A stretch of DNA of 64,000 nucleotides, from contig CAVYJM010000006.1 of NCBI GenBank assembly GCA_963768855.1, positions 928,001 to 992,000 on the forward strand, in the 5' to 3' direction. The notes under the pieces were generated by a model. The model searched no databases. It worked only from the letters and a program-made list of their open reading frames with translations, and had not been told where the DNA came from. The translations under genes were made by a program, and so were the position numbers. Position 1 is the stretch's first letter. Every line of letters starts with the position of its first letter. Positions 47,034 to 50,000 of the stretch are shown piece after piece. Origin of the DNA: an uncultured Thermoplasmata archaeon. GTDB lineage: Archaea > Thermoplasmatota > Thermoplasmata > RBG-16-68-12.

Positions 47034-50000
47034 GTGGCTACGGCGATTAGTGGCGGCGGGCTGAACACGTCGCCCTTGCGAGCTTCGTGCGTACACCCCC
47101 GCTCTATCAACGCGGTCGACTACCGCGACCGTAAGATGCCTCGTCTTGAGGACGGTTTCCGGCTTAGATGCTTTCAGCCGTTATCCGCATGGCGCGTGGC
47201 TGCTGGGCAATGCCTTGCCAGACAACCCATACACTAGAGGCGCCGATCCCCCGTTCCTCTCGTACTTAAGGGACCTTCCCCTCAGGCATCAAAGCGCTTC
47301 CACCAAAAAGCAACAAACCTGTCTCACGACGGTCTGAACCCAGCTCACGATCCCTTTTAATGGGCGAACAACCCCACCCTTGGCAGCTCATGCACCACCA
47401 GGATAGGAAGAGCCGACGTCGAAGTAGCAAGCCTCCGGGTCGATAGGAACTCTAGCCGGAGACGACTCAGTTATCCCCGGGGTAACTTTTCTGTCATCCA
47501 TGGCCCCCACAAATGAGGCTCATGGGTTCGCTAGGCCCGAGTTTCCTCTCGTGGACTCTCGTTGGGCAAGTCCACGTCAGGCTGGCTTTTCCCCTTACAG
47601 TTAACGGAGGATTTCTGACCCTCCTAAGCCAACCTTTGGGCGCCCTTGTTATCTTTTTGAGGGCGTGGCGCCCCACCCAAACTGCCCACCTATCGTTGTC
47701 CCTCCGAAGGGGTAAGCCGTACGAGTTCAGAAGGGCGGTGTTTCATCGGTCTCTCGGTACCGACCTAGCGGTCGGCCCTTTGTAACGAGTCCCGCCTACG
47801 CTACACATCCAAACTCATACGGCAGCGACAGACTGCAGTAAAGCTCCACGGGGTCTTCGCTTTCAGGTGGAAGGTACTGGACTGTGCGCCAGTACGTCAG
47901 TTTCACCGGCCTCCACGCGGGGACAGTAGAGCTCTCGTTGGGCCTTCATGCAAGTCGCCAATTAAGCGACAAGGTATTACGCTCACATCTGTTACTTTCG
48001 AGACCTCTCCCTCGCGTTCACGTTCGTGTTCACATCGAGGGAATAGGCGGGTCGCGATTTCTCGCGGCCTCCCCATGTCGCCATGGGGGTCGGACTTTAT
48101 CTTCACCGCGCCGTCGCGGTGATCGGCGTAAAGTCTCTGAGGGTTCCGACCTCGTTTCGAGATCGGCCTTCCCTGCGGATTGTCCGCACCTCGAGATTTT
48201 TACCGCTCGCGCGGTACTCGAGGATACTCGGAGTTCCCCGCATATGGCCGATTTTTGTTAAGGCGACGTTTTCACCTTAAGAGGGTCATAGTTACCCCCG
48301 CCGTTTACTGGTCCTTCGTCCCGTTGAAACGAGCTTTCAGATACCAGCACTGGGCAGGCTTCAGCGGCCGTACACAACCTTTCGATCTGGCGGCCACCTA
48401 TGTTTTGGTTAAACAGTCGGGGCTCCCTTGTCACTGCGACCAGCCGCTCACGCGGCTGGCACCCCTTATACCAAAGGTACGGGGCTAATTTGCCGAATTC
48501 CCTCGCGTGGATTTTCGCCGACACGCCTTGGGCTTCTCACCCAGGGGCACCTGTGTCAGTTCTAGGTACGGACAGGCGGAATGACTCCAACGTAGTTTTC
48601 ACGGACACCACGGATCAGCAGACGGACTTGCGTCCGTGCTCCCGCATTCGCCCCCTTCTCGCCATTACGGCACTCCAGGGGTTTCAACGGTTGAATCGCC
48701 AGGCAAGACGACTCCACCTACCGCGATGTGTCGAACGTTGGACAGGGTTCCGCTTGGTGCAGGAATATTAACCTGCTTCCCTTTCGCGTTCCTCGGTTAG
48801 GGGAACACTTAGGACCGACTAACCCTCGGCTGACGAGCGTTGCCGAGGAACCCTGGCCCTTTCGGCGGTGCGGATTCTCACCGCACTGTGCTGCTACTCC
48901 TCCCAGGATCCTCATTCGAACGCGGTCCACCGGACCTCACGGCCCGACTTCGACCCGCGCACGACGCCCCTCTACAAGATCACCTTTCGGTGCTCTGCAG
49001 TATCGGTGACCGACTTAAGCCCCGTCCCTTTTCGGGGCCCATAATCTCGGCTGGTGAGCTGTTACGCTATCTTTGAATGATGGCTGCTTCTAAGCCCACA
49101 TCCCAGCTGTCTGAGACTACGAACTCCCTTTGGTATTCGCACTGAGTCGGCACTTAGGGACCTTAACTGCAGGTTGGGCGGTTTCCCTTACGAATGCCAA
49201 GATTACCCCAGGCACTCGACTCCCGGCTTCTACGGCGGCCACGGATTTGGAGTTCGACAGGACACCGACGGATTTCTCCGCCTTAGCACCCAATCGGTAG
49301 CTCTACCCCATGGCCTAACCTCCGCCGAGGTCCAGCTGCGACTGATTTCGAGGGGAACCAGCCATTCCCGGCCTAGATTGGCCTTTCACCCCTATGCCCA
49401 GGTCACCCCAGTGATTTGCACATCAACACGGGTTCGGCCCTCCACCTCCCTTTCGGAAGGCTTCAGCCTGCCCAGGCATAGATCGACCGGCTTCGGGCAT
49501 CGCACCCACGACTCCTCGCGAGCCCACGACGCGCCTCGCGCCTTGCGGCGTTGCGCGCATGTCGCTTTCGCTTCGGCTTCCCGCTTCCAGCGGTTAACCT
49601 CGCCGTGGATCAGAACTCCCTGGCCCGTTATTCACAACGGATAATACGACACCGCTCCACCCTTTCGGGCTTCGTCGCTTTCGTGCCGTATACGTCTGTA
49701 ACTGTCTGGTTTCAGGCTCTTTTTACCTCCCGTCAAGGGCACTTTTCAGCTTTCACTCGCGCTACTAGTGCACTATCGGTCTCGGGGCGTGTTTAGAGTT
49801 GGATGTTTATGCCACCCACCTTCGCGCGCGATATCCGACGCACGCTACTCTGGATCCTCCGAATCACCTTCCCCGCTTGCCTCTACGGGACTGTCACCCT
49901 CTTTGGTCGCGGCATTCCACCGGAGTTCGAGTTGACAGGGTAAGGTGTGCCGGAGTCCGAACACCACACCGCCGCCGTCTTTCAACGGAGGCTTCGGTTT

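Follow-up and report, generated by a model that had tools for sequence, protein, structure and literature searches.

What is the insert that interrupts the only 23S ribosomal RNA (rRNA) gene of an uncultured Thermoplasmata archaeon, and how has it persisted there? We addressed this question in a 64,000-nt stretch of DNA (the window; positions 928,001 to 992,000 of contig CAVYJM010000006.1, assembly GCA_963768855.1), for which an earlier note had proposed a group I intron at 47984-48273, site L1931. The host genome (G000) is a metagenome-assembled genome (MAG) of 93.6% completeness and 7.7% estimated contamination. Its GC content is 65-68%, the host contig spans 1.13 Mb, and the host is an archaeon of soil or sediment. 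Our analysis shows that the insert is very probably a true group I intron with its structure intact, and an old, vertically inherited resident of the gene; it is assigned to the published IB4 type by shared insertion sites, the matching model RF00028 being a general group I model.

The insert in the 23S rRNA gene and its predicted fold

The interrupted gene encodes an archaeal large subunit (LSU) rRNA on the minus strand (50247..47029; Rfam RF02540, 2650 bits, model positions 1-2987), and it is the only LSU match in the 2.87-Mb assembly. It is unlinked to the 16S or 5S gene; the 16S gene lies on the same contig, about 390 kb away (G000:C6:582583-584049). Alignment to RF02540 in a re-scan of 47850-48420 showed a single insertion between ...GACCCUCUUA and GUGAGCGUAAUACC, to which it gave a length of 291 nt. 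Direct reading of the minus strand places the end of the 5' exon at U48274, the intron at G48273..G47984 (290 nt) and the start of the 3' exon at A47983, with CUUAAGGU flanking the intron on the 5' side and AGCGUAAUACC on the 3' side. The cut at 48274/47983 is the only one that gives back the consensus UUAAGGUAGCG, and with it the mature H69-H71 sequence CUUAAGGUAGCGUAAUACC. The intron begins with GAAAAC and ends with UGUG, the final G being omega-G (47984). By a count along E. coli H69-H71, checked against psi1911/1915/1917 and m5U1939, the insertion point follows the base equivalent to E. coli U1931, which confirms the site as L1931 (LSU/1931). This site lies between H69 and H71, at the subunit interface.

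RF00028 matched at 48303..48071 over model positions 1-253, with a score of 71.3 bits (cut-off 50) and E = 4.2e-16, so that the covariance-model check proposed in the earlier note gave a hit above cut-off with the general Rfam group I model. The minimum free energy of the intron has a z-score of -7.2, and none of 200 shuffled sequences folded equally well. At the 5' end, the 5' exon closes with UUAAGGU (48274..48280), whose 7 nt form the 5' strand of P1 and pair with the internal guide sequence GCCUUAA (48258..48264), with a wobble between U48274, at the splice site, and G48264. A possible P10 of 4 bp, read from the sequence, would join intron ACGU (48269-48266) to GCGU of the 3' exon. The conserved elements P (AUAUGCGGGGAA, 48245-48234), Q (AAUCCGCAG, 48181-48173), R (UCAGAGACUUUA, 48140-48129) and S (AAGAUAAAGUCC, 48103-48092) follow in order.

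The helices around these elements are fully paired as drawn, except for one C-A mismatch in P9.1. P3 (AUCGGC/GCCGAU, 48252-48247 with 48127-48122) and P7 (G(A)GACU/AGUCC, 48137-48132 with 48096-48092) are predicted from the sequence to make a pseudoknot, and P7 has a bulged A beside the G-C pair of the putative guanosine-binding site; the catalytic core as a whole occupies 48092..48137. P4 (48242-48237 with 48179-48174) continues into P5 (48232-48229 with 48186-48183), P5a (48223-48217 with 48195-48189) and P5b (48216-48211 with 48206-48201, loop GCGA). P6 (GGG/CCC) and P6a (CCGAUCUCG/CGAGGUCGG) lie within 48141..48173, and P8 (CACCGCG/CGCGGUG, 48121-48115 with 48110-48104) is followed by J8/7. 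The peripheral 3' domain (47984..48088) comprises P9 (CCCCAUG/CAUGGGG, 48088-48082 with 48077-48071, loop GCGA), P9.1 (48069-48062 with 48057-48050, loop GAAA), P9.2 (48048-48036 with 48014-48003) and a 19-nt tail to omega-G.

These pairings were compared across 20 aligned homologous introns: the share of paired cells is 91.3%, and falls to 32-44% once the partners are slid. Compensatory changes occur in 27 of the 87 pairs, a number reached by none of 500 shuffles. They fall in P3 (3/6 pairs), P5a (5/7), P5b (3/6), P6a (3/9), P8, P9 (two pairs) and P9.1 (one pair), while P4 is invariant and P7 is identical in 20/20 introns. P9.1, P9.2 and the tail are present in this alignment only in the copies at LSU/1931 and LSU/1923. 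We consider this covariation strong evidence, at the level of sequence, for a functional group I fold. The claims that the earlier note had made on structure thus hold: the 290-nt intron with its exact boundaries, the U-G pair in P1, omega-G, the coordinates of P, Q, R and S, and the helices P3, P7, P8, P9 and the extra P9 helices were all recovered exactly.

The same note had called the insert a ribozyme intron and not one of the bulge-helix-bulge (BHB) type usual in archaea, and here too the model match and the covariation agree with it. When we folded the junctions as a BHB intron, the exons paired only weakly with each other (-12.6 kcal/mol) and no 3-4-3 motif formed at the splice sites. 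An artefact is a further explanation to consider, in which an assembly chimera, or bacterial contamination, has been joined into an archaeal rRNA gene; the estimated contamination of the MAG and the frequency of a 22-nt motif of the intron core in soil bacterial MAGs would fit it. However, archaeal LSU sequence lies on both flanks within the 1.13-Mb contig, and a contig from the independent DNA run X1 covers both junctions. Moreover, 13 other genomes of the genus carry the intron at the same site, and the nearest bacterial introns share just 59-70% core identity with it. Chimerism of the contig, which the earlier note had named as a danger to its reading, was therefore not borne out, and this explanation is effectively refuted.

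Outside the intron, we observed that the flanks of the 23S gene (46955-47040 and 50240-50300, minus strand) pair as a long stem, with a co-folding energy of -66 kcal/mol and a 14-bp helix, UACCGAUCAUAUGC/GCAUAUGAUCGGUA. Such a stem is consistent with the BHB-bearing processing stems of archaeal pre-rRNA, in which case one transcript would have to undergo EndA-type cleavage as well as group I splicing.

Splicing and the RNA evidence

By established group I chemistry, we infer that the intron would splice itself. The guide GCCUUAA would pair with exon UUAAGGU to form P1 and place the U-G wobble at the cleavage site, which an exogenous guanosine held in P7 would attack. Omega-G (47984) would next take the P7 pocket, P10 (exon GCGU with intron ACGU) would align the 3' exon, and the freed U of the 5' exon would be joined to A47983. 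This ligation would give back the H69-H71 sequence CUUAAGGUAGCGUAAUACC of mature 23S rRNA. Because the host gene is the sole LSU gene of the assembly, the intron would have to be removed.

To look at RNA, we mapped contigs of three metatranscriptome runs (X15, X16 and X17), together with the DNA run X1, using a 96% identity filter. In the RNA runs, exon depth was 1e3-1e6, and intron depth was 0 in X17 and 2-5 in X16, with partial cover in X15. The exact joint 47983->48274, which skips 290 nt, was observed at depth 26 in X15 and, in 6 contigs, at depth 1433 in X17, and loose ends at 47983 running directly into exon 1 were seen in X16 and X17. No such joint was found in the DNA run X1. The ligated joint and the depth pattern are as splicing predicts, and fall short of proof.

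Besides the basis of the IB4 assignment, several observations weigh against reading the insert as an intact, spliced intron. On one side of the joint, its contigs extend just 26-30 nt into near-universal rRNA, so the ligated junction may come from intron-less organisms. The contrast in depth is inflated, because the 96% filter passes the exons of relatives and drops their faster-evolving introns, and for this reason we did not take it as proof. In X15, the first 120 nt of the intron, like a contig over the 5' splice site, are at about exon depth, and this RNA could be precursor, stable excised intron or contaminating DNA. Finally, the group I intron at L1931 in Simkania negevensis reportedly stays unspliced.

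The last two observations would also suit an insert that derives from a group I intron, is no longer spliced and remains as an expansion segment of the mature 23S rRNA. Depths in X15 are 21-55 for the 5' part of the intron (48155-48303) and the 5'-splice-site contig, close to those of the flanking exons, and Simkania is said to offer a precedent. We nevertheless consider such retention very unlikely. The catalytic elements are all intact and under purifying and compensatory selection, with P7 invariant and 27 pairs covarying, and neither the U-G wobble nor omega-G nor P10 has been lost. The exact ligated junction is present in X15 and X17, intron depth is near zero in X16 and X17, and an insert of 290 nt at the H69-H71 subunit interface should, on general grounds, be disruptive.

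Distribution, insertion sites and inheritance

We searched 40 related genomes by BLAST; homologous introns turned up in 14 of the 24 congeners sampled, and three further families of the order had them too. A second search, with exon, intron and exon together, covered 38 genomes of the genus, this one included. An ORF-less intron (one without an open reading frame) sits at L1931 in all 14 genomes in which the stretch is assembled; the other 24 gave no match to this part of the 23S gene, exons included. No empty L1931 junction was seen among the 14, and the intron appears fixed in the host genus. Identity to G000 in the intron and in the 23S exons declines from 93% and 98% in G023 to 72% and 81-83% in G035. 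Across a 150-genome sample of the phylum, just three other genomes gave a group I match. In the 23S gene of G001 (L018:2537-2720), a run of N starts just after P8 of the L1931 intron and the sequence picks up again some 128 nt inside the 3' exon, a scaffold gap of the kind by which rRNA introns break MAG assemblies.

Insertion sites were mapped by BLAST against intron-less rRNA sequences, and three were observed in the order: LSU/1931, LSU/1923 and, in the small subunit (SSU) rRNA gene, SSU/1498. At the latter two sites the guide matches the local exon with the U-G pair kept (GACCCU/GGGGUC at LSU/1923 and AGUCGU/GCGACU at SSU/1498). The LSU/1923 intron is the sole intron in G029 and stands beside the LSU/1931 intron in G011, where introns of 252 nt (LSU/1923) and 267 nt (LSU/1931) are separated by an 8-nt mini-exon, CUUAAGGU (L006:1471-1997). 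Twin introns 8 nt apart at the same two sites occur in G051 too (G051:C45:18858-19679). Both introns of G011 contain an identical P5a-P5b segment, which suggests that gene conversion does occur. The 16S gene of the present genome is without an intron, and at least 13 congeners have an ORF-less SSU/1498 intron of approximately 232-249 nt (233 nt in several), so this copy is polymorphic in the genus.

Exact matches to the 22-nt P5'-P4'-P6 motif of the core were found in at least 120 GTDB records, mostly bacterial MAGs. The bacterial matches listed come from Solirubrobacterales, Acidimicrobiaceae, Dormibacterota, bacteria of the Candidate Phyla Radiation (CPR), Planctomycetota, relatives of Bacillus and a Coxiella endosymbiont. 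Among the matches listed, many soil bacterial MAGs have one to several rRNA group I introns with the motif, often two per locus, and group I introns in such MAGs look far commoner than the few cases from cultured bacteria in the older literature. Archaea among the matches listed are a few Nanoarchaeota and one 'Methanobacteriota archaeon EA_28', whose 16S fragment is 96.6% identical to that of this genome over 439 nt and bears an SSU/1498 intron; among named records, EA_28 is the closest to the host.

We then compared the intron cores in trees. One group unites this intron with the other introns at LSU/1931 and LSU/1923 from the genus and family f6 and with those at SSU/1498 from the order, with an SH-like approximate likelihood ratio test (SH-aLRT) value of 99 in a quick tree and support of 97/88 to 99/97 for nested sets in a careful tree. 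Beyond these it contains just EA_28 and a 1.9-kb contig that had been binned as Krumholzibacteriota. This contig (JBDLKA010000228.1; L144, 1941 nt) carries an archaeal 16S gene with an SSU/1498 intron and is probably mis-binned, since it is 96.7% identical to G035 of this order. Core identity to this intron is 78-95% for LSU/1931 and LSU/1923 relatives of its own clade, 71-84% for the SSU/1498 introns of the same order, 68-70% for L1931 introns of family f7 and 59-70% for bacterial L1931 introns, which do not group with it in these trees, a comparison that the earlier note had called for. A single clade of all L1931 introns was rejected by the approximately unbiased (AU) test (p = 0.0045), for a group that was named after the tree had been seen and with rough site labels for the bacterial introns (regular expressions, 25 of 51 labelled 'other'). 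A single clade of all SSU/1498 introns was not rejected (p = 0.24).

We next considered whether the intron is mobile. ORFs in or across it have no Pfam match at E <= 1, in agreement with the earlier note, which had seen no encoded homing endonuclease. The free-standing LAGLIDADG gene for which that note had proposed a search did not turn up either: no LAGLIDADG_1 (PF00961) or LAGLIDADG_2 (PF03161) gene, and no homologue of the intron endonuclease of G030, was found in the assembly, an absence that falls short of proof because the assembly is 93.6% complete. Its sole LAGLIDADG domains are two of the LAGLIDADG_3 type (PF14528), both inside inteins, in the large subunit of ribonucleotide reductase (G000:C10:42600-45902) and in a radical-SAM protein (G000:C11:353070-356252). 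The endonuclease of G030, a genome of family f7 in the same order, is encoded within a 717-nt L1931 intron (L027:2500-3216, minus strand) by a single-motif LAGLIDADG_1 ORF (GFVDGEG; 83.7 bits). This frame begins in the 3' strands of P5 and P4, fills P6 and continues via P6', P7 and P3' to end in P8; coding therefore overlaps the ribozyme core. The endonuclease-bearing f7 form could be a direct ancestor type of the present intron: the f7 introns sit with Dormibacterota introns (99/98) in the free tree, but forcing all archaeal rows together was not rejected (AU p = 0.57).

The intron could still be mobile, through a homing endonuclease acting in trans or through reverse splicing. The closely related cores at LSU/1931, LSU/1923 and SSU/1498, the rejection of a single L1931 clade, the SSU/1498 copy that many congeners have and this 16S gene lacks, and the LAGLIDADG_1 gene in an L1931 intron of another family would all agree with this. 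However, the assembly yielded neither a free-standing LAGLIDADG_1 or LAGLIDADG_2 gene nor a homologue of the G030 enzyme, and its two LAGLIDADG_3 domains are intein-borne. All 14 assembled sites in the genus are filled, which would leave homing without a target, and intron identity drops along with exon identity. We regard present mobility as improbable. Instead, the intron is best read as an old vertical resident, because it appears fixed in the genus and its identity tracks that of the exons; its endonuclease would have been lost or never present, and it would persist because it splices. The earlier note had left the choice between an old resident and an intron mobilised in trans, and it is the former that is upheld, the latter having found no support.

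Residence at L1931 is one matter and the origin of the clade another. The nearest cores are those of the order's own introns at SSU/1498 and LSU/1923, and not those of L1931 introns elsewhere, which hints at movement between rRNA sites inside this lineage. The mixed sites suggest either site-switching in the lineage or homogenisation of cores between co-resident introns. We tentatively raise the possibility that the ORF-less introns at LSU/1931, LSU/1923 and SSU/1498 descend from one ancestor and moved between sites by a route that needs no endonuclease, such as reverse splicing. Each move would re-tailor the guide and the periphery, with P2 at SSU/1498 and P9.1 and P9.2 at the LSU sites. Alternatively, the same tree would result if introns residing in one genome had recombined or undergone gene conversion with one another.

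Comparison with known introns and implications

Group I introns in archaea have been surveyed by Nawrocki, Jones & Eddy (2018, Nucleic Acids Research 46:7970; PMC6125680), who described 39, all metagenomic and none tested biochemically. Fifteen are IB4 introns at LSU/1931, and 8 of these, at 248-403 nt, are too short for an endonuclease gene; others lie at LSU/1923 and SSU/1498. Their examples include IB4.1 (Thaumarchaeota, 281 nt), IB4.24 (Micrarchaeota, 248 nt) and IB4.14 (Euryarchaeota). The intron described here shares domain, host gene and site with this set and falls, at 290 nt, in its short class, and the same trio of sites recurs in its host lineage. The layout of KP308720.1 (their Table 1), with L1923 and L1931 introns 8 nt apart, is that of G011 and G051, all these likenesses being of site, size and layout as published. 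In contrast to the published set, the host here is a high-GC archaeon of soil or sediment with unlinked rRNA genes, the intron is fixed across a genus, and its core groups with introns of the same lineage at other sites. A group I intron at L1931 in archaea was thus already catalogued in 2018, and the present one adds one more host lineage.

Outside archaea, rRNA insertions of CPR bacteria occupy the same sites, and those at 23S position 1931 mostly encode LAGLIDADG_1 (PMC11270868). Like the G030 relative, many L1931 introns bear an endonuclease, whereas the present intron is without one. Bacterial and organellar L1931 introns have the same site and the same P, Q, R and S core. Group I introns at L1931 reportedly occur in the 23S genes of Thermotoga and Simkania and, as the I-CpaI intron, in chloroplasts. 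BHB introns, which are cut by EndA, resemble the present intron in interrupting archaeal rRNA genes, and the flanks of this 23S gene form a long stem of BHB type. They differ in that the junctions here are without a BHB and the insert has a complete, covarying group I fold. With regard to the host, the high GC content, unlinked rRNA genes and soil origin of the Lutacidiplasmatales resemble this genome; their description (PMC9287336) makes no mention of EA_28 or introns. In the literature, we found no paper that ties group I introns to soil archaea of the Thermoplasmatota type.

The added interest is modest and lies in genus-wide fixation and in the mixed insertion sites of one host-specific intron clade. 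Like the published archaeal examples, this intron rests on computation. With its presence in the sole 23S gene and in every congener assembled at this site, it offers a clean case in which self-splicing of an archaeal group I intron could first be tested biochemically. For annotation, genes of this kind will be mis-handled by rRNA pipelines that expect no archaeal introns other than BHB ones. The sister introns at three rRNA sites, with cores that are 71-95% identical, form a compact data set on change of site without an endonuclease. If these introns do descend from a single ancestor that switched sites, they would be an example from nature of a group I intron changing sites in archaea.

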